A DNA stretch of 42,287 nucleotides. It comes from Calditrichota bacterium. Lineage in GTDB: Bacteria > Calditrichota > Calditrichia > JAJRVZ01. Below are positions 1-37,292 of this stretch, one piece after another. Positions within the stretch are counted from its first letter, which is position 1. Each line of letters begins with the position of its first letter. The position numbers and the translations under genes were made by a program. Below the pieces are notes generated by a model that searched no databases, was not told where the DNA came from, and saw nothing but the letters and a program-made list of their open reading frames with translations. The DNA lies in assembly GCA_024277055.1 (NCBI GenBank), contig JAJRVZ010000047.1, positions 1 through 42,287 of the forward strand. Direction: 5' to 3'.

Positions 1-1651
1 CCAGTTCCCGTATATTTCCCGGCCAAGAATATTTGCAGAGTTGCTGCATCACTTCATCTGAAATTGCGTTTATGGAGCGGTTGTGAATTTTGTTGAATTT
101 TTCAATAAAATGACGGCACAGGTATTCTATATCGCCGGCCCGCTCGCGCAACGCGGGTAAGTGAATATGTACGGTATTCAATCGATAGAACAGATCCGGT
201 CGAAATTTGCCTTCCTTGATCAGAGCATCCATTTTCCGGTTTGTGGCCGCCAGGATTCGAACATTCACGGAAATGGGATTTGGATTCCCCAGGCGCATTA
301 TTTCCCGTTCCTGCAATACCCGCAACAGTTTTACCTGAATGATGCCGGGTATATCGCCGACTTCGTCCAGAAACAGCGTCCCCCCGCTTGCCAGTTCGAT
401 TAAGCCCTTCTTTTTCACGGCCGCACCGGTGAACGCCCCCTTTTCGTAACCGAACAATTCTCCTTCGAGAAGCGTTTCCGGAATGGCGCTGCAATTTACG
501 GCAATAAAAGGCCCTTCGGCGCGGCGTGAATGCTCATGAATCGCCCGTGCTACCAGTTCTTTACCCGTACCCGTTTCCCCGGTAATCAGAACGCTGATAT
601 CGGTCGGGGCAACTCTGCGGGTCAATTCAAATATTTTTTGCATCACCCTGTCCCGGGCAATCATACCGCTGAACCTGAAACGCTCGGCGGAATACAGCCA
701 ATGGTAAAATCCGGCGACCAGTTGTTCAATATCTTTATATCTGCTTTGCAGGTACGAGCGTCTTCTTGACAAATTCAATTTGATGATACTGTTGATACTT
801 TCAACAGACTGGAAAAAGATATTGGGAAATTTGGCTGACGCGTATTGCGCTTTTACGTTTTCAGTCTGGAAAACAAGGTACAGGTTTTCTCTGTAATTTT
901 TCGCAACCTGCACAATATTCTGAATAATTCCATCATCATCATTTTGTGTGTTTATGATAAGCGCCGGCCTGGAAAGAATGTTTTCCAGTTGTGACAATTC
1001 GACAGGAATCAGACTATGTTTTACGGCAATATCATAGGCCTGTGAAAACTTGGAACTCAGCAATTGTGCCGGCTGATGTATTATTGATTTAAAATAACCG
1101 GCGAAACTTAAAACGGTATTTTTATCATGACCGATCAGAATCAGCTGGTGTCCGCTGATATCATCAACTATTTTGCAGGCAATATCCTTTATGGCATCGC
1201 CGGCATTTATGCCGTATTTTTTCATTTCATCACTCTGCAGAACCTGTTCCGTAAAATCGATCGCCAGGCGGTAGAGCTGGGTAAGAACCGGCCCGGAAAG
1301 TTCGAGATCGAGTGAGAGATTAAACGCTTCCTTGTACTGTGTAAGTTTTGCGGGGTCTGCCGCGACAGGATCATGAACTCCCATCATGATTTCAAAAAAG
1401 CGTTTTGCGGCTTCCTGCTGGTGTAATACTGTCGGGTTGGTTACCGAACGATTGAAAACTTCCGCACAGACTGACCGGAGAAAAGGAACCGTTTCGGTTC
1501 CGAAAATAAATATATCATATCTGCCGTTTGAGTTCAGTACAAGACATTCTTCGACACAATGTTCTTCCATTACCGGTTGGATTTTTTCCAGTATATCCGC
1601 TCCGACAGGATTTTTATTACTGTCCGCTATTTCAAAATGTGATAAATACAT
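1..1651 (-). CDS. Sigma54-dependent enhancer-binding protein with an N-terminal degenerate glutamyl-tRNA reductase (HemA)-like domain; 3' end runs off the window
   Basis: Hand translation from ATG 1651 gives 550 sense codons with no stop. Residues ~327-550 carry Walker A GETGTGKE, AVNCSAI, ELFGYEKGAFTGA, Walker B LFLDEV, LLRVLQE, RILAATN, FRPDLFYRL and YSWPGNIREL. Residues 1-321 follow HemA motif order: EECLVLNSNGRYDIF, EAAKRFFEIMMGVHDPVAADPAKLTQYKEAF, SGPVLTQLYRLA, IACKIVDDISGHQLILIG, FPNIFFQSVESINSIIKLNLSRR, LVAGFYHWLYS. The HTH would lie beyond the window. Confidence 0.9.
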   Translation of the reverse strand, partial: MYLSHFEIADSNKNPVGADILEKIQPVMEEHCVEECLVLNSNGRYDIFIFGTETVPFLRSVCAEVFNRSVTNPTVLHQQEAAKRFFEIMMGVHDPVAADPAKLTQYKEAFNLSLDLELSGPVLTQLYRLAIDFTEQVLQSDEMKKYGINAGDAIKDIACKIVDDISGHQLILIGHDKNTVLSFAGYFKSIIHQPAQLLSSKFSQAYDIAVKHSLIPVELSQLENILSRPALIINTQNDDDGIIQNIVQVAKNYRENLYLVFQTENVKAQYASAKFPNIFFQSVESINSIIKLNLSRRRSYLQSRYKDIEQLVAGFYHWLYSAERFRFSGMIARDRVMQKIFELTRRVAPTDISVLITGETGTGKELVARAIHEHSRRAEGPFIAVNCSAIPETLLEGELFGYEKGAFTGAAVKKKGLIELASGGTLFLDEVGDIPGIIQVKLLRVLQEREIMRLGNPNPISVNVRILAATNRKMDALIKEGKFRPDLFYRLNTVHIHLPALRERAGDIEYLCRHFIEKFNKIHNRSINAISDEVMQQLCKYSWPGNIREL

Positions 1652-1654
1652 GGT

Positions 1655-2470
1655 TTAATGAAATGAATGTAATTTCGAAAAATAATTGTTAATTACCAGC
1701 ATGGAAAAAATAATCCAGCTGTAGCCGATGATAGAAAAATAGGCCAAACGGTTTCCGGGCCAGTTCAGTTTCTTTTTCCCCAGAAGTGCAAGACCGAAAA
1801 TGAGCCAGGAAATCAGCACGGCGATTAATTTGGGGTCCCAGGACCAATAGGTGCCCCAGGCCGTTTTTCCTGTAATCGCTCCAAGCACAATTCCAAAACT
1901 GTTGAACACAAATCCAAGCGCCAGGCTCAGATGGATTTTTTTTTCAAGAAATGATAGAGAAGGAAGCCGCTCATAAAAATATCCCAGATGCGTGCTTTTT
2001 ATTTCATGAAAAAGAAGCACATACATTAACCCGGATAAAAATGAAAGTGAAAAGGCTGCATACGCCAGCAGATTGAAAATTACATGTACTTCAAAATACA
2101 GGTTTTTTAAAATTTCCGGTGTTGGTGCGGAAACTTCAATAAACAGCATTGCGATTGAATGCAGAATAAAAATAATGCCGGCATGAAAAACGCCCAGAGC
2201 ATAGGACCGTTCTTTAACTATCACTATCCTGTTTAAAACAGCAAAAAACCAGATAAATGTTGTAATTGCCTGAAATGGATCATTCAGCGGTAAATGGCCC
2301 TTTTCCACGCTGAGCATTACCAGAAAAACCGTATGCAAAATTAACCCGAAGACGAAACTTAATCTGGCCGGCCGTAATTCCTTTTCATTTTGAGACTTGA
2401 AATACTTAAAATAAAAATATGCTGAAATAGCATAGGAAACGGGACCGAGAACTCTTAAGAAAACTATCAT
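1655..2470 (-). CDS. CcsA/HemX-family (cytochrome c assembly, heme-handling) membrane protein
   Basis: 271 aa with about 8 hydrophobic segments. Has the Trp-rich WWD motif WGTYWSWDPK, His residues in GLILHT, FEVHV and the C-terminal LHSF, and the RLPSLSFLEK loop. Upstream of a HemA-like gene; no CcsB/ResB partner in the window. Confidence 0.88.
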   Translation of the reverse strand: MIVFLRVLGPVSYAISAYFYFKYFKSQNEKELRPARLSFVFGLILHTVFLVMLSVEKGHLPLNDPFQAITTFIWFFAVLNRIVIVKERSYALGVFHAGIIFILHSIAMLFIEVSAPTPEILKNLYFEVHVIFNLLAYAAFSLSFLSGLMYVLLFHEIKSTHLGYFYERLPSLSFLEKKIHLSLALGFVFNSFGIVLGAITGKTAWGTYWSWDPKLIAVLISWLIFGLALLGKKKLNWPGNRLAYFSIIGYSWIIFSMLVINNYFSKLHSFH

Positions 2471-2476
2471 TTTAAA

Positions 2477-2518
2477 TGTTTCAGTTTGGAATCATACATT
2501 TTGTTTCAAAATTAAACA
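2477..2518. promoter_or_regulatory. Pair of palindromic operator-like sites (TGTTTCA-N3-TGAAACA) between the putative promoter and the ccsA/hemX-like start codon
   Basis: 2477-2493 is TGTTTCA-GTT-TGGAATC (11/14 consensus positions) and 2502-2518 is TGTTTCA-AAA-TTAAACA (13/14). The same motif recurs at 2778-2814. Confidence 0.6.
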
Positions 2519-2548
2519 AGTATAATACAAAAAAGCCATGTAATGCAA
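2519..2548 (-). promoter_or_regulatory. Putative sigma70-type promoter for the ccsA/hemX-like and bEBP genes
   Basis: Minus strand reads TTGCAT (2548-2543), 18-nt spacer, TATACT (2524-2519). It lies just downstream of the terminator at 2566-2592, so the two genes probably need a promoter here. Confidence 0.4.
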
Positions 2549-2565
2549 GATAAAAAACTATCTAC

Positions 2566-2592
2566 AAAAACCCCCGGTATGTAAACCGGGGG
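2566..2592 (-). terminator. Rho-independent terminator
   Basis: Minus strand reads CCCCCGGT-TTACAT-ACCGGGGG followed by TTTTTG: an 8-bp GC-rich stem plus U-tract. Confidence 0.8.
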
Positions 2593-2655
2593 CTGATCAG
2601 CAAACAACAGGTATTGTTGTTTAGGGAGGAACTGTTGTGGGATAACATTAATAGG
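2566..2655 (-). ncRNA. Candidate sigma54-dependent small RNA (~90 nt) or terminated leader RNA
   Basis: Bounded by a -24/-12-like element (predicted +1 near 2655) and the terminator. Contains the C-rich stretch UUCCUCCCU, a perfect 8-bp hairpin AAACAACA-AUACC-UGUUGUUU (2602-2622) and the terminator hairpin. No RNA family recognised. Confidence 0.5.
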
Positions 2656-2665
2656 GATTTAATAC

Positions 2666-2681
2666 TACAAAATGAATGCCA
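2666..2681 (-). promoter_or_regulatory. Sigma54 (-24/-12)-like promoter
   Basis: Minus strand TGGCATTCATTTTGTA versus consensus TGGCACNNNNNTTGCW. Spacing is exact and the -24 GG is intact, but the -12 element is GT instead of GC. Adjacent to a sigma54 activator gene. Confidence 0.55.
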
Positions 2682-2777
2682 AAAATATATGTGCTTATGC
2701 GTATTGTACAAACTGTTAATTTTTAAGGGATTATCAATCAATACCACTTTTGAGGTTTCGCAGATTACCGGGTTCTT

Positions 2778-2814
2778 GATTTCAATCTGAAACACCGGGT
2801 TTATATTTGAAACA
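2778..2814. promoter_or_regulatory. Tandem palindromic upstream activator sequence candidates
   Basis: 2778-2794 is GATTTCA-ATC-TGAAACA and 2798-2814 is GGTTTAT-ATT-TGAAACA, repeated at 20 bp. They sit about 120-160 bp upstream of the predicted sigma54 start site. Confidence 0.6.
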
Positions 2815-2835
2815 AGAATACGGAGAATGATTTGT

Positions 2836-4290
2836 TCAGGGGGATAATAATCTCAGCAAAATGGAATTAACAATTTTAGGATTGGCCTTTCCTGCGGATT
2901 TACGCATTACCTGTCCCACGAAAAAACCTATTAACCCGGTTTTTCCGTTTTTGTATGCGTTCACTTCATCGGGATACTCAGCCAGTACTTCTTTTACCAT
3001 GGATTCTATGGCGGAGTCGTCCGAAACCTGAATAAGCCCCATTTCCTTCACGATTACATCTGCCGACTTATCGGAAGTCAGCAAAACATCAAACACCTTT
3101 TTTGCGGCACTGCTGCTTATTTTTCCTTCACGGATCAGTTTCAACAATTCCGCAAATCGTATTTCGGAAATGGGAAATTCTTTAATTTCAATTTTCTTAT
3201 CGTTCAATACCCGCAGTACATCACCGAGAACCCAGTTGCTCACCAGTTTTGCGTCATTGATAATTTTTACGGTTTGTTCATAATAATCCGCCAGTTCTCT
3301 TGAGGAAGTGAGAATTTCCGCATCATATTCCGGTAAACCGTATTGATCCATAAACCGTTGACGACGGACTGCCGGCAATTCCGGTAGCATCTTTTTCAAT
3401 TGCCGTACATAATCCTCTGCAATCTCCAGACGAACGAGATCGGGATCGGGAAAATAGCGATAATCGTGAGCCTCTTCTTTCACCCGCATAATCTGTGCAG
3501 TACCGGATGACGGATCCCACAAAAGTGTGGCCTGTTCAACCGTCCGACCGGATTCCAGCAGTGAAACCTGACGCTGGATTTCGTAGGTCAGTGCATTTTC
3601 TACATTGCGCAGAGAATTCATATTTTTAAGCTCTGTTTTCGTCCCCAGTTCCGTTTCGCCCTTTCTTCGCACCGAAACATTTGCATCGCAGCGCAGGCTG
3701 CCCTGTTCCATGTTTCCATCACATATCCGGAGGTAACGAACCAGTTGGCGGATTAAAGACAAATAGGCGTGGGCCTGTTGCGGCGTTCGCAAATCCGGCT
3801 CCGTGACGATTTCAATTAACGGCGTACCGCAACGATTTAAGTCCACCAGCGAACTTCCCGCGTCTACAAAATCTTCATCGTGCACACTCTTTCCGGCATC
3901 TTCTTCAAGGTGGATGCGATTAATGCGGATAGTGTGCTTTTCACCATCTGTTTCAACCTCAACCCGGCCGTTTTTACAGATGGGATGTTCAAATTGAGAT
4001 ATTTGGTAGCCTTTGGGCAAATCCGGATAGAAATAATTTTTCCTGGCAAAAACATTATGTTCGGATATGGTGCAATTGGTGGCAAGACCCATTTTTATTG
4101 CGAATTCCACCGCCTTTTCATTTAAAACCGGGAGAACGCCGGGCATTCCCAGGCAAACGGGACAGGTCTGTGAATTCGGTTCCGCGCCGAATCGTGCGCT
4201 GCAGCCGCAAAATATCTTGGTAATGGTGCTGAGCTGGGCATGAACTTCGAGCCCGATCACCGCTTCATATTTATCTTCTGAAATAGTCAT
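2836..4290 (-). CDS. gatB: Asp-tRNA(Asn)/Glu-tRNA(Gln) amidotransferase subunit B
   Basis: [54 protein letters not shown] and C-terminal [13 protein letters not shown]. Confidence 0.98.
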
Positions 4291-4293
4291 TGA

Positions 4294-5715
4294 TCACTTA
4301 AAATTTTTCTCTACAAAATCCGCTACCCGAAACAATTTTCCTTCCTCAAACGCATTCGCCATGAATTGCACACCGATGGGCAGACCGGAGGCATCCATAC
4401 CAACAGGAACATTTATTCCGCAGATGCCGGCGAGGTTGGCGGAAACCGTAAATATATCGGAAAGGTACATTTCGAGGGGATCACTGATTTTTTCCCCCAT
4501 GGCAAATGCCGTAGCCGGTGTAGTCGGGGTTAGAATCGTATCAACTTTTCCGAAAGCTTCATCGAATTCTTTTTTGATCAAATGCCTTACCTGCAGGGCT
4601 TTTTTATAATAGGCATCGTAATATCCCGAGGAGAGCACATAGGTTCCGAGCATGATACGGCGACGGACTTCTTCTCCGAAACCGTTTTGCCGGGTACTCC
4701 GGTACATTCCGGCCAGCGTTTCCTGCCGATCATCCCGGTAACCGTACCGTACGCCGTCAAATCGGGCCAGGTTGGAACTGGCCTCGGCCGTTGCGATGAT
4801 ATAGTAAGCGGCGATGCCGAATTCAAGTGTTTTTTCCAGTGAAATTTCAACGATTTCCGCCCCGCTTGCTTGCAGGTAATCGGTAAGTTTTTGCAGTCGG
4901 TCGCCGATCTCTGGCTGGATACCTTTTTCGAGCACCGCCCTGTTTACACCGATGCGTATTCCCCTGATATCACGATTGATGAACGAATGAAAATCCGGAA
5001 CAGGTTCACGACTCGATGTGGAATCCCTTTCATCATGGCCGGAAATTACCCCCAGGATTAACGCTGCATCATCCACGGTTCCGGTCAGTGGGCCGATCTG
5101 GTCCAGTGAAGAGGCAAAAGCGACCAGTCCGAAACGTGAAACCCGGCCGTACGTCGGCTTCAAACCGACGACACCGCTGAATGCAGCCGGTTGTCGAATC
5201 GAACCGCCCGTATCACTTCCCAGTGCGGCCTGTGCCATACCCGCCGCCACTGCAACAGCCGAACCGCCGCTCGACCCGCCCGGTACCCTGGATTCATCAA
5301 CAGAGTTTTTAACATTGCCGAAATATGAGTTTTCATTGGAAGAACCCATGGCAAATTCGTCCATATTGGTTTTACCGATAAAAACCGCTCCGGCATCCGT
5401 CAACTTTCTAATAACAGTGGCATCAAACGGTGAATTAAAGTTTTCGAGGATTCTTGAAGCGCACGATGTTCTGACACCGGCAATATTGATATTGTCCTTA
5501 ATGGCGAATATGGTGCCGGCGAGCGGCCCCGGGTCGGCTCCTCTGGAAATCTCTTCGTCAATCCAGCCTGCTCGTTGCATCGCCCGTTCATTCAGTAAAG
5601 TAATGAAAGCGTTGAGATGTGAATATTCATCACATTTTTTCTGAAAGGATTGAAGGGATTCCGCGGCCGAAAGCTTACCCCTTTTAATTTCCCGAACGTA
5701 TTCACGAAGAGTCAT
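4294..5715 (-). CDS. gatA: Asp-tRNA(Asn)/Glu-tRNA(Gln) amidotransferase subunit A
   Basis: Amidase signature: [73 protein letters not shown]. Confidence 0.98.
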
Positions 5716-5954
5716 TCAGGCTTTTTTTCCTTCATTTCTTCACCGGATTCGGCCGATTCGTTGTTTTGCACTTTCGGTTTTGATTGATCTGTGGTATTCA
5801 CGTTGAATTCATCCTGTATTTCACTGGTTGCCTTTTTGAATTCACGAATACCTTTTCCCAATCCCTGGGCCAGTTCAGGCAGTTTTTTGGCACCAAAGAT
5901 CAGCAGGATAATGAACATAATGATGATCAATTCGGTTGGGCCGATACCAAACAT
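5712..5954 (-). CDS. tatA: Twin-arginine translocase subunit TatA/E
   Basis: [38 protein letters not shown]. Overlaps the gatA start by 4 nt. Confidence 0.95.
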
Positions 5955-12633: not shown

Positions 12634-12849
12634 GCGCTTTTAAACCTCATTTTAAAACTTTAAAGTTACACAATCTTTATACTTATTGCAAATAAGCAAC
12701 AGGTGATAATCTTCACGCAAATAAATGAAAATACAGAAGTAACGACATACAAAAAGTTCCGGACCGCCGCAAATTTACATTTGTATTTATTGGCTTGTTT
12801 GCTTAATTTGCTCAGGTTTGTTCAGTTTGTTAATTAACCAGTCTCCGGA

Positions 12850-14109
12850 ATGAATTCCAGATATTTTAATACGTACAGGGTCTTTTTTTTCAGTCTGCCC
12901 GCGGTGGGCCTGTTATTGCTTTCATCGGTTTTTGTTGTTGCCGGAAGCGGGCATGCCGTCCTGCCCGGAATTACCGTTTTGATCGACAAACAGGTGAATA
13001 ATCTTGCCGGTAAGCGGGTCGCCCTTCTCACCAACCCCAGCGGTGTGGATGAAAACCTCGTATTGTCCGCCGACATCCTGTTTAATCATCCTCAGGTAAA
13101 TCTGGTTGCATTCTTCGCCCCGGAACACGGGATTCGCGGCATGGCGGACGCCGGAAAGCATGTTAAGACCTACACGGATCCGAAAACCGGTTTGCCGGTT
13201 TACAGCCTGTACGGTAAAACCAGAAAACCAACGGCTGAAATGCTCGAAAACATCGATGTTGTTTTGATAGATATTCAGGATGCGGGAGTTCGTTCATATA
13301 CCTTTATCTATTCGATGGCGATGGTAATGGAGGCGGCGGCTGAAAACAGCAAAAAAGTTATTATTCTCGACCGGCCGAACCCGATGGGAGGCATTCAGGT
13401 TGCCGGGAACATTTTAAAACCGGAGTTCGCTTCTTTCGTCGGAATGTACCCCATACCATATCTTCACGGAATGACCATCGGTGAACTTGCGCGATTATTC
13501 AACAACGAATTTGGTATAAACTGCGAACTGGAAATCATCCCCATGAGCGGCTGGAAGCGCAGCATGAACTGGGGCCGAACCGGCCTGGTGTGGGTGCCGA
13601 CTTCTCCACATGTACCGCACTGGCAAACCGCTTTTGCGATGGCCGCCACCGGAACATTCGGTGAGCTGCACACCCTTTCCGAGGGGGTCGGCTATACCGC
13701 ACCGTTCGAATTTATCGGAGCTCCCTGGATAGACGCCGAAGTATTCGCAGCGAAACTGAATTCGCTGGAATTGCCCGGAGTTTATTTCCGTCCGGTTCAT
13801 TTTATTCCGTATTACAAGAAATACAAGGGAAAACAATGCCACGGGGTGCAGATGCATATTCTTAATTATGATACCTTTCAACCCTATGAAACCGGACTAT
13901 ATATTCTGGAAACAGCTCAACAACTTTATCCCGAAATCGATCTTTTCGGAGATGAAGGACGCGTATCTTCATTTATCAGGGTAATCGGTGATGCACAAAT
14001 CGTCTCCGACCTGAGAACCGGTAAGCCCGTTAAGCAGATCATTACCGACTGGCAGGATGACCTGAACTCATTCAGGAAGGTGCGCGAAAAGTACTTGATA
14101 TATAAGTAA
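12850..14109 (+). CDS. namZ: Exo-beta-N-acetylmuramidase NamZ (DUF1343/YbbC family)
   Basis: Hydrophobic N-terminal segment; LLTNPSG, APEHGIRG, YSLYGKTRKPT, DIQDAGVRSYTF, LDRPNP, HGMTIGELA, WVPTSP. Confidence 0.9.
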   Translation: MNSRYFNTYRVFFFSLPAVGLLLLSSVFVVAGSGHAVLPGITVLIDKQVNNLAGKRVALLTNPSGVDENLVLSADILFNHPQVNLVAFFAPEHGIRGMADAGKHVKTYTDPKTGLPVYSLYGKTRKPTAEMLENIDVVLIDIQDAGVRSYTFIYSMAMVMEAAAENSKKVIILDRPNPMGGIQVAGNILKPEFASFVGMYPIPYLHGMTIGELARLFNNEFGINCELEIIPMSGWKRSMNWGRTGLVWVPTSPHVPHWQTAFAMAATGTFGELHTLSEGVGYTAPFEFIGAPWIDAEVFAAKLNSLELPGVYFRPVHFIPYYKKYKGKQCHGVQMHILNYDTFQPYETGLYILETAQQLYPEIDLFGDEGRVSSFIRVIGDAQIVSDLRTGKPVKQIITDWQDDLNSFRKVREKYLIYK

Positions 14110-23529: not shown

Positions 23530-24870
23530 CTATAGTCCCAGCGTCTGGCGGTCTTTTGGAGACACCAGCACACCGATGACGTGTTTTTTATCTTTTACGT
23601 ATGTGTCAATATACCTTTTGATATCTTTGCGGGTAACTTTATTGAGATTGTCGACATAGTTCAGATAGTAATCCAGACCGGCGACCGCCCACCAGAAACC
23701 AACGGAGTGAACAAACTGCGAAGGACGTTCGCGGCCGTATTTTTCATCAATGGACAAAATGGTTTTGGCATTTTGCAATTGTTCGTCGGTAAAATAATCT
23801 TCGGAGCTCATGGCATCCAGCTCGGCGAAAACGGCTTTTTTACAGCCCTCGAATTTATCGGCGGAAGTTTGAACGGTCAGTGTTATCGGACCGGTATGAT
23901 TCAGCGTGTAATAGCCGAAATTGACAAAATATGCCAGTCCGCTTTCCACCAGGTTTTTGTGAAATTTCGAAGTTTTTTGCCCTAGAATGAAGGAAAGTAC
24001 ATCAGCGGCATAGGTTGCCTGCGGATCTTTACTAACGCTCGGCCCTTGCCACGCTACCTGCATTACTACAGCATTTACGGGTTTTTCAACAATAACAGTT
24101 TCCGTTTTTTGAATCGGAGGATGCTCCGGTATTTTGTATTTTTTAAACGGATCATCACCCCGCTTCCAGGAACTGAATACCTTTTCCGCCAACTGAAAAC
24201 CCTGCTCCGGAGTTATATCACCGGCCAGCAATAATGCGGAATTATTCGGGATATAGTAACGGTCCTGAATGGTCTGCATTTTTTCCGTAGTTGTATTCAG
24301 GATAACTTCACGGTCTCCGATTACATTTTTGCGGCTGAAGTATTTCCACCAAACCTTTTTATCTACCGCCCTGCTGAGATGAAAGAACGGGTTTGATTCA
24401 TTACGGTCATATTCTCCGGTTACAACAGGACGTTCACGCACCAGTTCCTCCTGTTGGAATAATGGACCTGTTATTGCGTCGTACATGAACACCATAGCCG
24501 CTTCCGTGTTTTCCTTGGGAACGGTGAAAAAGTAGTTAACCCGCTCATGACTTGTTGTACCGTTCCAGGAAGCTCCCAACTCACGCAGCCGTTCCATATA
24601 CCGTTCCTGGTTCGGAATCTTTTTGTTTGCCTTGAAAAACATGTGCTCATAAAGATGGGACAGACCATCGAATTCCGGTGACTCGGTATAGGCGCCGTTT
24701 TTTACATCGATTTCCACCGTGACCAGCGGTACCTGGTGGTTTTCGATAACTATTACGTCGAGTCCGTTGTCAAGCGTTTTTCTGAAAATGTTGTATTTTT
24801 GCGCTGAGGCTGAAATGCTGAATAGCGCGATCAACGCAATCAGTACAACTAACCGTGGTTTACCTGTCAT
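23530..24870 (-). CDS. M16 (pitrilysin-family) zinc peptidase, catalytic subunit
   Basis: Signal peptide; TLDNGL, inverted zinc motif GLSHLYEHMFF, ERPVVTGE, YYIPNN..LLLAGD. Confidence 0.92.
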   Translation of the reverse strand: MTGKPRLVVLIALIALFSISASAQKYNIFRKTLDNGLDVIVIENHQVPLVTVEIDVKNGAYTESPEFDGLSHLYEHMFFKANKKIPNQERYMERLRELGASWNGTTSHERVNYFFTVPKENTEAAMVFMYDAITGPLFQQEELVRERPVVTGEYDRNESNPFFHLSRAVDKKVWWKYFSRKNVIGDREVILNTTTEKMQTIQDRYYIPNNSALLLAGDITPEQGFQLAEKVFSSWKRGDDPFKKYKIPEHPPIQKTETVIVEKPVNAVVMQVAWQGPSVSKDPQATYAADVLSFILGQKTSKFHKNLVESGLAYFVNFGYYTLNHTGPITLTVQTSADKFEGCKKAVFAELDAMSSEDYFTDEQLQNAKTILSIDEKYGRERPSQFVHSVGFWWAVAGLDYYLNYVDNLNKVTRKDIKRYIDTYVKDKKHVIGVLVSPKDRQTLGL

Positions 24871-26744
24871 GACTCCTCCCTTTGTTTAATGTGCGTGTTA
24901 CGTTTCTCATGAATTTTCCTTTTTCCGGAAGTTCTTTTCATTTTACCATAAAGTCGTTCGATTAAATCCTCCCGTCCCATTTGACGCAATTTTTGCTCCA
25001 GCTGTTTACGATTCTCAGATTTATACCAGAAAAAAAATTGTCTTTGGCTTAATTTTTCCGACCGTGTTCGAGCCACCGGTACTTTTTTTAATGAATAAGG
25101 GTGATAGCCGGAATAATAGACCACGGTTGCCACGGTCATCGGCGTCGGAGTAAAATCCTGAATCTGCTCAAGTTTATAGCCCAGCTCTTTGGTTTTTACA
25201 GCCAGGTCGGCCATTTCCCGGTTTCCGCAACCCGGATGACTGGAAATGAAGTACGGAATTATTTGCTGATTCAGTCCATTCTTTTTGCAGAGGGAATCGA
25301 ATTGATCTTTAAACCGGTAGAATGTATCGAATTTCGGCTTGCGCATTTGTTTGAGCACACCCGGATCGGTATGTTCGGGCGCCACTTTCAACCGACCTGA
25401 AACATGGTGTGTAACCAGCTGCTCAATATATTCCGGCTGGTTAAGGGAAATATCGTAGCGGATACCGCTGGATACAATTGCCTTTTTTATCTTCGGATGA
25501 TCATTAACTTTACGGTAAATTTCCAGCATTGCTTCATGCGAAGTATCCAGATTCTGGCAAACGGTCGGGTGGATGCAGGAAGGTGCTACACAGCGTTCAC
25601 AAACGGACAGGTCTTTACCCTGCATTTTATACATATTTCCCGAGGGACCTCCCAGGTCGGAAAGGTAGCCTTTGAAATCGGGCATTCGGGTTATTTTATC
25701 CACTTCTTTCAGAATCGAATCCTGCGAACGGCTGGCGATAAATTTTCCCTGGTGTGCCGAAATAGTGCAAAAACTGCAACCGCCGAAGCAGCCGCGGTGC
25801 ATATTCACTGAAAATTTTATCATTTCAAAGGCGGGAATCGGTCCGCGTTTCTGATAACGGGGATGCGGCAAGCGCGTGTAGGGTAGGTCGAAAGCGGCGT
25901 CTATCTGTTTTTCGGTCATTGGAGGGTACGGCGGGTTGATAACCAGTCGCTGATTGCCAACGGCCTGCACCAGGCGCCTGGCATGGATTTTATTGGACTC
26001 CTGTTCAATATACTTGAAATTGCGCGCAAATTGTTTTTTATCTTTCAAACAGGTTTCATGTGCCGTCAGCTCAAAAGTTTCCCATCGGCGGTTTTTTGGT
26101 AACCCGGATTGTAAATCCTGCAAAAAGGCCGTTTGCGGTATCGTACTGAGTGATCGGAACGGTACACCCTTTTTCATCAGGTGAACGATTTCAAGCAGGG
26201 GCAATTCGCCCATACCATAAACCAGCAAATCGGCGTTGCTGTCGGCAAGAATGGGAGGTTTCAGGCAATCCGACCAGTAATCGTAATGCGTTACCCGGCG
26301 AAGGCTTGCTTCAATCCCGCCAAGTACTATCGGGACATCAGGGTAAAGAGCTTTCAGAATTTGACAATAGACGATTGAAGCATAATCCGGGCGAAATCCG
26401 GCTTTGCCGCCGGGCGTATAGGCATCGTTGGAGCGCAGGCGGCGGTTGGCGGTATAGTGATTAACCATCGAGTCCATGTTTCCGGCGGTTACCCCAAAAA
26501 ACAGTTCCGGTTTTCCCAGTTTTTTAAAGTCACGCAAATCATCGCGCCAGTTCGGCTGGGCAAGGATTGCCACGCGTAAACCTTCTTTTTCCAGCAATCG
26601 TCCAATAACCGCAGAACCAAACGCAGGGTGGTCAACATAAGCATCCCCGCTGACGATGATTACATCAACGCTCTCCCACCCGCGTTTATCCATATCGGAC
26701 CGTGTTACCGGCAACCAGTTTTCTATGGGTATATTGTTTTGCAA
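24867..26744 (-). CDS. YgiQ/UPF0313 family radical SAM protein
   Basis: GDAYVDHPAFG, GNMDSMVNHYT, GGIEASLRR, CxxxCxxC as GCFGGCSFC, VAPEH, YFISSHPG, FTPTPMT. Confidence 0.95.
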   Translation of the reverse strand: MQNNIPIENWLPVTRSDMDKRGWESVDVIIVSGDAYVDHPAFGSAVIGRLLEKEGLRVAILAQPNWRDDLRDFKKLGKPELFFGVTAGNMDSMVNHYTANRRLRSNDAYTPGGKAGFRPDYASIVYCQILKALYPDVPIVLGGIEASLRRVTHYDYWSDCLKPPILADSNADLLVYGMGELPLLEIVHLMKKGVPFRSLSTIPQTAFLQDLQSGLPKNRRWETFELTAHETCLKDKKQFARNFKYIEQESNKIHARRLVQAVGNQRLVINPPYPPMTEKQIDAAFDLPYTRLPHPRYQKRGPIPAFEMIKFSVNMHRGCFGGCSFCTISAHQGKFIASRSQDSILKEVDKITRMPDFKGYLSDLGGPSGNMYKMQGKDLSVCERCVAPSCIHPTVCQNLDTSHEAMLEIYRKVNDHPKIKKAIVSSGIRYDISLNQPEYIEQLVTHHVSGRLKVAPEHTDPGVLKQMRKPKFDTFYRFKDQFDSLCKKNGLNQQIIPYFISSHPGCGNREMADLAVKTKELGYKLEQIQDFTPTPMTVATVVYYSGYHPYSLKKVPVARTRSEKLSQRQFFFWYKSENRKQLEQKLRQMGREDLIERLYGKMKRTSGKRKIHEKRNTHIKQREES

Positions 26745-28063: not shown

Positions 28064-28100
28064 AAAGCCATGGCGGGTTCTTCCTGTCATGGCTTTTTTT
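28064..28100 (+). terminator. Rho-independent terminator between convergent genes
   Basis: AAAGCCATGGCGGG-TTCTT-CCTGTCATGGCTTTTTTT: a stem with G-U pairs followed by a U-tract. Confidence 0.85.
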
Positions 28101-35203: not shown

Positions 35204-36298
35204 TCAGTCGAGTTCCGTATTCAGACGAAACAGTAATATTCTGTTATTTCCGCTGTCACAGATATACACGGTGGGGTCGACACCGCCGAGGGTTACGGCA
35301 ATACCGGAAGGATTATTCAGCGGTTTTAAATCAGAATCATTTCCGAACAGTTCCTCACCGCCGAAGGATTGCAGCAGTTTCCCGGCCGGATTGTATCGAT
35401 AGACATTGTAGGGATGCCCGGTATCGCTTCTTTGATCCAGTACGAAGATGAAACCGCTGTTATCAACTTCGATATCTATCGGATGCAAAAAACCACCGAC
35501 GGTATACAGATCATTATTAATATAAGCGGTATTCGGTCCGAGGGTCAATTCCTGCCCCGACCCGAAAGCTGCGACTCCCTGTACTTTAAAATTATTTTCC
35601 CCCACGTGACCAAAAAGAAAATCCAGCCGGCCGTAGCGTTGGCTTTGTACCGTAGTCGGTTGCTTCACGACAAAAAGTCCCTGACCTTCCCGAAAAAGAG
35701 GAAGCGGCCCGCGTCTTATCAGCTGGTTTTCCACGGCATTTTTTTCAAAAAACTCGAAATCTATGATATCGCCGTAAGTCGAATCGTCCGCATCCACTGC
35801 GGCGGCATAGGCTCGGTGCCTGCCTTCGTAAAAGTAGGCGGTAATTCCCCTGTAAACCAGGCTGCTGTTCTGGCTGTATTCGTGCACAACCTCCACCGGC
35901 GCCTGCCCGATCCGGTGATTATGACTGACGAGATCAATCTTATAAACCTTGTTGGTGCCGTTGACGATCAGCAGGTTCAGCAGGTTGTCCTGTGTGATGG
36001 CCAGCGGGTTTTCAACGGGTTGTGAAACACCCTGTACGGCCCCAAGAATATCGAGCATGATGATGCGGTTATTTCCGGTATCACACACATAAATCAGGTT
36101 ATCCAGACCAAGTATGATATCCGACGGCTGATTCATAACAACACCGAATTCCGCATCCCACACCGGAAGCAATTGCACATAAACTTCTTTCCCGACATTG
36201 CCAAGCCCGGTATTCGGTACCGTCGGAAGGCCGATTTTTACATTTTTACAACCGGTGATGATCAGTACGATCAAAACGATCTTCATCCAATAGCGCAT
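35204..36298 (-). CDS. NHL-repeat/beta-propeller lipoprotein
   Basis: Lipobox IITGC; NHL-type repeats QPSDI..IYVCDTGNNRI, HPIDIEVD..IFVLD and NPSGIAV..VYICDSGNNRI. Confidence 0.8.
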   Translation of the reverse strand: MRYWMKIVLIVLIITGCKNVKIGLPTVPNTGLGNVGKEVYVQLLPVWDAEFGVVMNQPSDIILGLDNLIYVCDTGNNRIIMLDILGAVQGVSQPVENPLAITQDNLLNLLIVNGTNKVYKIDLVSHNHRIGQAPVEVVHEYSQNSSLVYRGITAYFYEGRHRAYAAAVDADDSTYGDIIDFEFFEKNAVENQLIRRGPLPLFREGQGLFVVKQPTTVQSQRYGRLDFLFGHVGENNFKVQGVAAFGSGQELTLGPNTAYINNDLYTVGGFLHPIDIEVDNSGFIFVLDQRSDTGHPYNVYRYNPAGKLLQSFGGEELFGNDSDLKPLNNPSGIAVTLGGVDPTVYICDSGNNRILLFRLNTELD

Positions 36299-36299
36299 T

Positions 36300-37292
36300 T
36301 CAGAATTCCAGTAAAAAATTGAATCGGTTCACCGTTCCCAGGCGACCAAAATTGGTGAATGCATAATCCACCCGAACCGTTGCAATGTTCAGTGATTGTC
36401 TTAATCCGAATCCGGCTGAAAAATCCTCTTCGACCTGTGCCGTTTTAAAACCGGCGCGCAATGCCAGAAAACCGTTCCACATATACTCTACACCGAAATT
36501 AATGTTTTCCGAATTGTCATTGGGATGATTGAGTTGTATCGCCGCGGTCAGGCGGTTGTTTTCATCGAATTCAAAATCGTTGGCAATACCGAATCGAAAC
36601 ATCGTGGGCGGTGCGAACGATTGAAAACTGTTTACCGTGTGCGTCCGGTTGTTCAAATCCTTCTGCCGGAAAGAGCCGGTCGGTGTAATGTCCGTTCCGA
36701 AATTGGACAGACTGACAGCAAAGCGGGTATTGGCGAACCCGGTACGGTAGTAAGTACCCAGATCGAACAGCAAAGAGGACATTGAAACTTCGGCAATATC
36801 CTCCCGAGAAGACTTCAGAGTCACTCCGAAGCTGAACTGATCCGTCATTCGTCGTGCATAGGAAACACCGAATAACGCATCGGAAAAGGTGAAATACTGG
36901 CCGGTTCCTAACGGCTGAAAAACAGTGGTTTCTTCCATATCGGCCATGTGCAGATAAGTAAGAGAAAAGCCAATGGTGTTCAGGGCGTCCAGGTGATACA
37001 CAATTCCCGCATTTTCGATTTTTACATCCACCACCCATTGGGTATGGTCGAAATAGACCTGGTTTTCGGTGAATTGCGCCAGTCCGGCAGGATTCCAGTA
37101 CAAGGCGCTGGCATCGTTTGCAACGGCGATGAAGGCCTGCCCGAAAGCTTCGGCCCGGGCACCGACGCCGATTTTCAGAAACTGTGCACTTGAAGTGCCG
37201 ACACGCTGCGCGCCCAAAGTGGGCAACAGCTGCGCCTGCAGCAAAAAAGGCAACAGAAAAAAAGCCAGTATGTAGGATGTGCGTTTCATCAT
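36300..37292 (-). CDS. PorV/PorQ-family outer-membrane beta-barrel protein
   Basis: Signal peptide from MMKRTSY (ATG overlaps the upstream TGA); AQFLKIGVGARA..ANDASALYWNPAGLA, INFGVEY..LALRAG, VDYAF, C-terminal Phe. Confidence 0.85.
   Translation of the reverse strand: MMKRTSYILAFFLLPFLLQAQLLPTLGAQRVGTSSAQFLKIGVGARAEAFGQAFIAVANDASALYWNPAGLAQFTENQVYFDHTQWVVDVKIENAGIVYHLDALNTIGFSLTYLHMADMEETTVFQPLGTGQYFTFSDALFGVSYARRMTDQFSFGVTLKSSREDIAEVSMSSLLFDLGTYYRTGFANTRFAVSLSNFGTDITPTGSFRQKDLNNRTHTVNSFQSFAPPTMFRFGIANDFEFDENNRLTAAIQLNHPNDNSENINFGVEYMWNGFLALRAGFKTAQVEEDFSAGFGLRQSLNIATVRVDYAFTNFGRLGTVNRFNFLLEF

Follow-up and report, generated by a model that had tools for sequence, protein, structure and literature searches.

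A 42,287-nt contig of a Calditrichota bacterium (JAJRVZ010000047.1; the whole stretch is called the window below) carried, between gatB and a gene for a HemX/CcsA-like membrane protein, a short structured segment that is tentatively read here as a small RNA (sRNA) gene. All genes around this segment lay on the minus strand, with tatA (5954–5712), gatA (5715–4294) and gatB (4290–2836) upstream and, downstream, the HemX/CcsA-like gene, followed after a 3-nt gap by the gene of a sigma-54 activator (bacterial enhancer-binding protein, bEBP). The gap between gatB and the HemX/CcsA-like gene was 365 nt long (2835–2471), with a G+C content of 32.6% vs. 46.7% for the window. The window also encoded a type IX secretion system (T9SS) sorting domain and a SusC-like receptor, and its gatB was at most 62% identical to that of any species representative, the top matches being titled Melioribacter, KSB1 and Ignavibacteriales. 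An earlier note on this DNA had described a promoter-like motif, a C/U-rich stretch, a hairpin and a terminator in the gap, and each of these elements was recovered on the minus strand at identical coordinates (Table 1).

The sequence elements and the fold can be described directly. The RNA segment was a G+C island (44%, against 23% and 32% in its flanks), and a 101-nt stretch (2660–2560) folded at −28.1 kcal/mol compared with −17.0 ± 2.9 kcal/mol for shuffled versions (z = −3.79), none of the 200 shuffles being as good. Hairpin 1 was a perfect 8-bp stem (arms 2622–2615 and 2609–2602) closed by a 5-nt loop. The intrinsic terminator behind it had the stem CCCCCGGT/ACCGGGGG (arms 2592–2585 and 2578–2571) and a 6-nt loop, followed by TTTTTGT (UUUUUGU in RNA). 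At −16.6 kcal/mol in a custom terminator scan it was the strongest intergenic terminator in the neighbourhood, it was retained in both the minimum free energy (MFE) and the centroid structures, and RNAfold drew it as a 10-bp stem. The terminator at 2571–2592 was found by RNAfold and the custom scan and missed by an automated terminator scanner, likely because an A-U/G-U extension of the stem consumes part of the T tract; scans using that scanner alone would overlook it. The self-complementary linker between hairpin 1 and the terminator, GCUGAUCAGC, could serve intermolecular RNA pairing or be a DNA site.

Ahead of hairpin 1 lay the C/U-rich stretch CCCACAACAGUUCCUCCCU (= CCCACAACAGTTCCTCCCT), which contained UCCUCCCU (2630–2623), the complement of AGGGAGGA. 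The stretch was predicted to be exposed, with a mean unpaired probability of 0.88–0.89 for UCCUCCCU in both start models, where it formed either part of an internal loop or a single strand before hairpin 1. Motifs of the form UCCC began at 2657, 2642 and 2627, spaced by 15 nt; at least three UCCC within 40 nt were seen in 49 of 5000 shuffles, in a test picked after the pattern was seen. A purine-rich 4-mer stood at −22 to −4 in about 20 of the 34 gene starts (a count without control), from which Shine–Dalgarno pairing seems to be in use in this organism. As a separate observation, the ribosome-binding site (RBS) of an M16-type peptidase gene starting at 24870 (24874–24881, minus strand) was AGGGAGGA, the exact complement of UCCUCCCU and the only other AGGGAGGA in the window, where 0.7 occurrences were expected by chance.

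Two promoter-like elements preceded the structured part. The first, TGGCATTCATTTTGTA at 2681–2666 (TGGCAT-N5-TTGTA), resembled a sigma-54 −24/−12 element, with GG and TTG at the right spacing and the −12 C replaced by T, the consensus being GG (−24) and TGC (−12) separated by ten bases. Positions −24 and −12 rarely deviate (PMC4591121), and the earlier note had held that the −12 GT weakens the promoter call. This objection is softened by the confirmed Escherichia coli promoters pspA (TTGGCACGCAAATTGTA) and pspG (TTGGCATGATTCTTGTA), which also end in TTGTA (PMC4591121, Table 1 therein); the core letters of the window element TTGGCATTCATTTTGTA were identical to those of pspG. The sigma-54-like match is acceptable but not strong, and the chance-level frequency of the motif, given below, remains. 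The rule that transcription starts 19 bp downstream of the motif centre (PMC4591121) places the predicted start at 2655 as well, near which the earlier note had also expected the RNA to begin.

The second element overlapped the first. In the accessible part of a preprint (10.1101/172254), the RpoD promoter of Bacteroidetes/Chlorobi takes the form TTG-N17-23-TAnnTTTG, as in promoters here called FCB-type (Fibrobacteres–Chlorobi–Bacteroidetes). The window sequence TTTG-N21-TATTTTTG fits this form, and the RNA start would then be near 2675. The box TAnnTTTG occurred four times in 2988 nt of promoter-direction intergenic DNA (1.34/kb), compared with 0.34/kb over both strands of the window. A further match, TAATTTTG, would provide a promoter of its own for the downstream operon; no −33 element was read in the sequence at a fitting spacing from it. 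Elsewhere, in the gap that separates truA from the divergently oriented gene at 12850 (12634–12849), TACATTTG and TAAATTTG stood on opposite strands within one short palindrome, and these face-to-face −7-box matches suggest that the organism uses the FCB-type promoter.

Four boxes of 17–18 bp clustered in this gap only, each a variant of the dyad TGTTTCA-N3/4-TGAAACA. When the gap was searched for repeats, two inverted-repeat pairs were returned, 2477–2494 with 2777–2794 (89% complementary over 18 nt, 282 bp apart) and 2501–2517 with 2799–2815 (88% over 17 nt, 281 bp apart), which were not nested. When up to three mismatches were allowed to this motif, which was defined from the boxes themselves, four of the nine window matches to the N3 form and four of the ten to the N4 form fell in the gap, with 3.4 and 3.0 expected in the whole 42 kb. 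In a motif-free test the gap held two independent inverted-repeat pairs matching at 15/17 or better; among 2000 dinucleotide shuffles, at least one such pair appeared in 2.1% and at least two in 0.05%. Since neither pair encloses the other and every box forms a dyad by itself, the boxes are read as candidate sites of a dimeric DNA-binding protein, not as an RNA stem or as transposon ends. A role at the RNA level, by long-range pairing in a gatB read-through transcript, was considered less likely on the same grounds.

Boxes 3 and 4 lay 106 and 126.5 bp from the −24 GG (10.1 and 12.05 helical turns), boxes 1 and 2 sat between the terminator and the HemX/CcsA-like start codon, and the two pairs were roughly mirror-symmetric about position 2647. 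According to the accessible part of one source, dimers of sigma-54 activators bind palindromes far upstream of the promoter, tandem duplication being frequent (PMC6296734), and the corresponding part of another describes two cooperative activator sites about 100 bp upstream for the LuxO type (PMC11407668). Boxes 3 and 4 agree with the enhancer expected from these excerpts, namely dyads, often in tandem, about 100–150 bp upstream.

Table 1. Features of the gatB-to-HemX/CcsA-like gap and its flanking genes, in window coordinates; distances of boxes 3 and 4 refer to the predicted start at 2655.
Feature	Position	Strand	Remarks
gatB	2836..4290	minus	last of the tatA-gatA-gatB run; lacks a terminator between its stop and 2592
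Dyad box 4, GGTTTATATTTGAAACA (on + strand)	2798..2814		centred 151 bp upstream of predicted start
Dyad box 3, TGATTTCAATCTGAAACA	2777..2794		centred 130 bp upstream of predicted start
TTTG, possible −33 element of FCB-type RpoD promoter	2709..2712	minus	21 nt upstream of −7 box
TATTTTTG, match to FCB-type −7 box TAnnTTTG	2680..2687	minus	overlaps sigma-54-like −24 element
Sigma-54-like −24/−12 element, TTGGCATTCATTTTGTA	2666..2682	minus	GG at 2680–2679, TTGT at 2670–2667
Predicted RNA body	2563..2655	minus	93 nt with the sigma-54 start; would be ~113 nt if the FCB-type promoter starts near 2675
C/U-rich single-stranded stretch, CCCACAACAGUUCCUCCCU	2623..2641	minus	predicted unpaired
Hairpin 1	2601..2623	minus	8 Watson–Crick pairs plus closing U-G pair, loop AUACC
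Linker, GCUGAUCAGC	2592..2601	minus	perfect 10-nt self-complementary sequence, between hairpin 1 and terminator
Intrinsic terminator	2563..2592	minus	8-bp G+C-rich stem, 6-nt loop, UUUUUGUA tail
Dyad box 2, TGTTTCAAAATTAAACA	2502..2518		1 mismatch to palindrome; overlaps TAATTTTG box
TAATTTTG, second −7-box match	2507..2514	minus	37 nt upstream of HemX/CcsA-like start codon
Dyad box 1, TGTTTCAGTTTGGAATCA	2477..2494		7–24 nt upstream of HemX/CcsA-like start codon
HemX/CcsA-family membrane protein	1655..2470	minus	271 aa; PF01578; W-rich WGTYWSWDPK motif
Sigma-54 activator (bEBP)	2..1651	minus	cut by window end; residues 1–325 predicted GluTR-like pseudoenzyme domain, then AAA+ with GAFTGA

The activator matched Sigma54_activat at E 4.7e-70 and kept the GAFTGA and Walker motifs. 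By sequence, the resemblance of its residues 1–325 to glutamyl-tRNA reductase (GluTR) was weak (Pfam GlutR_N at E 1.2e-5, below the cut-off; PDB 1gpj at E 0.041, collinear). A structural model of this N-terminal domain reached a pLDDT (predicted local distance difference test) of 87 and a pTM (predicted template modelling score) of 0.78, and Foldseek with the model returned 1gpj as the top PDB match (E 7.5e-16, TM 0.68) and Arabidopsis GluTR as the next. For residues 1–325, a word-index search of proteins gave no match, and an exhaustive one gave 262 relatives at E ≤0.001, the nearest 33% identical.

Twelve of the 262 relatives were scanned against Pfam. Seven of them (P0005–P0008, P0010, P0019, and P0151; 626–675 aa) were full fusions, each with a sigma-54 AAA+ domain and a Fis-type helix-turn-helix (HTH). 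Both GlutR_N and Shikimate_DH matched only in P0008 and P0010, GlutR_N alone in P0151, and Shikimate_DH alone in P0007 and P0019; neither GluTR model matched P0005 and P0006, which were counted as fusions through their match in the exhaustive search. P0004 and P0086 had the AAA+ domain without an HTH match, P0003 had GlutR_N only, and P0011 and P0097 had full GluTR domains. By comparison with the full fusions, the window copy would be without about 100 C-terminal residues, including the HTH. Identity within this GluTR-like/sigma-54 fusion family was 19–27% in the alignment and 27–33% over locally matched stretches. In alignment A1, all five true GluTRs kept the glycine-rich nucleotide loop as well as the Cys motif LSTCNR, and both were lost in all nine fusions, that of the window among them, which indicates that the domain is a pseudoenzyme and not an enzyme; it is a candidate sensor. 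The literature search found no paper uniting glutamyl-tRNA reductase, sigma-54 and enhancer-binding.

The neighbouring membrane protein is a putative HemX by family (PF01578, E 1e-26) and by adjacency to a GluTR-type gene. A complex prediction pairing this protein (1655–2470, minus strand) with the GluTR-like domain (677–1651, minus strand) scored 0.67 vs. 0.01 for the best control. Of 157 solved complexes 116 attained the mark used, as did two of 215 mismatched pairs; these counts hold only roughly because the prediction was made with a custom alignment. Agreement among the three runs was 92% of contacts or better, with a pLDDT of at least 80 for the partner. The prediction supports, but does not show, binding between the HemX-like protein and the GluTR-like domain. 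On the membrane protein, the predicted interface comprised two loops (153–174 and 236–241) flanking the two helices on either side of the W-rich motif; these loops would face the cytoplasm if the motif faces outward as in CcsA-type proteins. On the activator, it comprised residues 157–164 and 254–292.

The reading favored here, with a confidence somewhat short of even, is a separate sRNA gene with a promoter on which the dyad boxes act, most probably via the adjacent activator, and with a product that works through the exposed C/U-rich stretch. Such a gene would lie on the minus strand of the gatB-to-hemX-like gap and start near 2655 from the sigma-54-type promoter TTGGCAT-N5-TTGTA (2682–2666) or, alternatively, near 2675 from the overlapping FCB-type housekeeping promoter TTTG-N21-TATTTTTG. 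Its transcript would end at the intrinsic terminator (2592–2563) and measure about 93 to 113 nt. The tandem boxes centred 130 and 151 bp upstream would form an enhancer for a dimeric activator, most probably the GluTR-like sigma-54 activator encoded two genes downstream, and boxes 1 and 2, which overlap the hemX-like/activator operon in its promoter and 5′ region, would allow the same protein to regulate its own operon. Within the RNA, UCCUCCCU and the further UCCC motifs would stay unpaired ahead of the hairpin and terminator and could pair with purine-rich, AGGGAGGA-like RBSs, thereby blocking the initiation of translation. The earlier proposal that the sRNA is the output of the adjacent activator gained from the anatomy, the boxes at enhancer distance and the kept GAFTGA motif, and was weakened by the chance frequency of the promoter motif and the overlapping FCB-type promoter.

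An extended version would make the locus a self-contained circuit that senses heme or tetrapyrroles and is of an undescribed type. The HemX-family protein would hold or release the activator via the GluTR pseudoenzyme; the activator would bind the four boxes, turn on the anti-Shine–Dalgarno sRNA and adjust its own operon; and the sRNA would retune heme-related or other mRNAs. As a whole this circuit is distinctly unlikely; what supports it beyond gene order is the predicted complex of the HemX-like protein with the GluTR-like domain.

Several results weigh against the sRNA-gene reading. The sigma-54 consensus with up to two mismatches had 14 matches in the window vs. 19.9 expected, and the core TGGCA-N6-TTG had two vs. 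1.98 expected, which is chance level; the −12 T for C and the overlap with an FCB-type housekeeping promoter match count on the same side. No terminator-like hairpin of −9 kcal/mol or better belonging to gatB was present between its stop and 2592, so that read-through from gatB must also stop at the 2592–2563 terminator. The HTH of the activator lies off the window, and the boxes therefore cannot be tied to it; in addition, the dyad motif was defined after the data had been seen, though the inverted-repeat shuffle test was motif-free. Duplex energies at the 34 translation-start regions (mean −10.7) were no better than those at 1000 coding windows (mean −12.4), a comparison that, with 34 genes, says little about the targets. 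Transcription and its start site, the sigma factor, the box-binding protein, action in trans and the targets are what we infer from the sequence.

Searches for relatives of the RNA brought no support either. Rfam 15 gave no match at gathering scores over the whole window, including the RsaE, PsrR1, and anti-hemB families. A permissive Rfam scan of 2300–3000 gave ten sub-threshold matches, largely on the terminator hairpin, of which the best scored 25.9 bits against a gathering score of 52, and the Rfam comparison proposed in the earlier note thus brought up no family at threshold. Related loci were collected by a genome-contig scan with gatB as query, and 80 of 140 relatives were kept (46–62% identity), which is too distant for covariation analysis. 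No homologue of the RNA was found by blastn-short in these 80 loci or elsewhere in the window. A single-sequence covariance model run over the window and the 80 loci (785,750 bases) found only itself (132.4 bits), with the next match at E ≥3. None of the 80 loci had a HemX/CcsA-like homologue or preserved the gap, the activator was matched in four of the 80 by its AAA+ domain only, and one relative locus that was read (L002) was unrelated. The RNA had no paralogue in the window and no plasmid or phage match. The locus is a well-formed candidate and not a proven RNA, everything resting on one sequence, and an activator-linked sRNA gene is plausible.

The segment could instead be the plain 3′ untranslated region (UTR) of the tatA-gatA-gatB transcript, with the terminator belonging to gatB, the hairpin and C/U-rich stretch functionless and the boxes serving the downstream operon only. 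We consider this somewhat unlikely. It agrees with the lack of another hairpin of −9 kcal/mol or better between the gatB stop and 2592, with the chance frequency of the sigma-54-like pattern and with the failure to find an RNA homologue in the 80 related loci or by the covariance model. The place of the terminator argues otherwise. The earlier note had put it about 245 nt from the gatB stop, and 244 nt were measured, whereas the other strong intergenic terminators of the window lay 16 nt (22219–22185, minus strand) and 34 nt (28067–28093, plus strand) past their stops. With a weak terminator also at 16 nt, the range of 15–30 nt given earlier for the other terminators holds roughly. Among the relatives, 74 loci offered 450 nt or more of sequence past gatB and five of these had a strong terminator there, a count that favors neither reading; the other six of the 80 had been dropped for short flanks or because no stop was found. 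A mere 3′ UTR also fits poorly with a stretch that forms a G+C island and folds better than every one of 200 shuffles, with two promoter-like elements just ahead of the structured part, and with boxes 3 and 4 lying upstream of the RNA and not beside the downstream gene. If the RNA is only the 3′ end of gatB, the dyad boxes and the activator pair are still worth a look.

Unlikely, too, is a terminated leader, in which the same promoter would drive the hemX-like/activator operon and the terminator would attenuate read-through. This would amount to positive autoregulation with a brake, the short RNA being a by-product that is possibly functional; such a leader could coexist with a functional short RNA. 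The RNA does lie on the strand of the operon, 95 nt upstream of its start codon, activators often control their own operons, and the downstream −7-box match is without a −33 partner at a fitting spacing. The terminator, however, was kept in the MFE and centroid structures, and the only competitor found by reading was a 5-bp CCUCC:GGGGG pairing, nothing upstream complementing the 5′ arm. In addition, a separate TAATTTTG box, overlapped by box 2, is interposed before the start codon, downstream of the terminator, and Rfam gave no match to any riboswitch or leader family.

It is improbable that the sRNA is transcribed from the FCB-type housekeeping promoter alone, with the four boxes binding a looping repressor unrelated to the activator and TGGCA...TTGT a coincidence. 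The published promoter form, as far as the accessible part of the preprint gives it (10.1101/172254), accommodates TTTG-N21-TATTTTTG, and the enrichment of TAnnTTTG in promoter-direction intergenic DNA favors it, as do the chance frequency of the sigma-54 pattern and the mirror symmetry of the box pairs about 2647, as in repression loops. The TAnnTTTG counts are nevertheless small, and A+T-rich intergenic DNA favors the motif in any case. An activator with an intact GAFTGA must have one sigma-54 promoter or more to act on, and near its gene the match described here is the sole intergenic one; the distances of boxes 3 and 4 also fit an enhancer.

A small protein is very improbable: the 28-aa frame (ATG 2648 to TAG 2562) and the 77-aa GTG frame (2795–2562) are both open, but the latter had no Pfam match, neither start was preceded by a purine-rich RBS, the frame crosses both hairpins and the terminator stem, and the gap has the low G+C content given above. 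A mobile or invertible segment is scarcely credible, since the two inverted-repeat pairs 281–282 bp apart do flank the segment but run in the order A B ... A′ B′, which is not nested and leaves no terminal inverted repeats. Moreover, every box forms a dyad by itself, the neighbourhood has no gene for a recombinase, and no copy occurred elsewhere in the window, in plasmids or in phages. A type I toxin was rejected on the grounds set out above for the alternatives.

Arrangements in which an activator close by yields an sRNA as its sigma-54 output are already known (GlmY/GlrR, CrcZ/CbrB, Qrr/LuxO). GlmY acts by protein sequestration, not by an anti-Shine–Dalgarno seed, and crcZ and qrr1 adjoin their activator genes. 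In the GlmY/GlmZ-GlrR system of Enterobacteriaceae, the GlrR enhancer of the sRNA genes is TGTC-N10-GACA (PMC4987338, Table 1 therein), an 18-bp dyad comparable to the boxes described here. GlrR, however, is a two-component response regulator, whereas the activator here has a GluTR-like sensor domain, and the RNA here, which matches no Rfam family, resembles GlmY/GlmZ neither in sequence nor in structure. CrcZ/CrcY-CbrB of Pseudomonas and Qrr-LuxO of Vibrio are similar in that, in the accessible part of PMC6296734, the sRNAs are the direct sigma-54-dependent output of one activator, and the two cooperative sites of LuxO-type activators, as the excerpt of PMC11407668 has them, recall boxes 3 and 4. 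The same part of PMC6296734 gives the CbrB sites as non-palindromic, whereas the boxes here are dyads. CrcZ also differs in working by protein sequestration. The RNA described here precedes the operon, and a gene for a membrane protein separates it from the activator gene.

The proposed mode of action is that of the C-rich sRNAs RoxS/RsaE of Firmicutes, in which, as far as the available excerpt describes them, unpaired UCCC motifs pair with G-rich ribosome-binding regions; these belong to another phylum and another regulator, and no Rfam match to them was found here. MicL and DapZ are sRNAs that have their own promoter and share the terminator of the upstream gene, the promoter lying inside the coding region. 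The RNA here likewise lies just downstream of an open reading frame without its own terminator, and mRNA and sRNA would share a 3′ end, but its candidate promoter is intergenic, some 155 nt beyond the gatB stop.

The accessible part of PMC5801465 reports that HemX of Staphylococcus aureus keeps GluTR abundance low and that hemX and gtrR (the reductase gene) are adjacent in 106 of 113 hemX-carrying genomes, and, as of 2018, it leaves the mechanism of HemX action on GluTR in this species unsettled. The HemX-GluTR pair of S. aureus and Bacillus subtilis is comparable to the HemX/CcsA-family gene beside a GluTR-type gene here, although here the partner is without the catalytic Cys motif and glycine-rich loop and is fused to a sigma-54 AAA+ domain, and the output would be transcription, not enzyme abundance. 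This natural fusion, with a reductase scaffold turned regulatory and a predicted HemX-like contact, would give a simple read-out of the HemX-GluTR interaction. The locus has unexpected features. If real, the RNA would give a poorly sampled lineage of the FCB group a regulatory RNA driven by sigma-54 and linked to an unusual sensor, namely a sigma-54 activator that carries a GluTR-like pseudoenzyme and is paired with a HemX-family protein. Rfam holds no sequence relative of such an sRNA, and neither the lineage nor the sensor was found described for one in the literature searched, where no paper was found joining RpoN, sRNA, Bacteroidetes and enhancer-binding.

Some minor observations concern other genes of the window. 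The 80-aa frame at 5954–5712 was TatA (PF02416), not gatC, and overlapped gatA by 4 nt; no gatC was seen in the window, and tatA stood directly upstream of gatA-gatB (4290–5954, minus strand). Two apparent gaps of the crude gene map, 36299–36570 and 37039–37291, look coding, with a G+C content like that of genes. The second of these opens with a signal-peptide-like frame on the minus strand, and the start codons of the genes at 36298 and 37038 were probably called too late.

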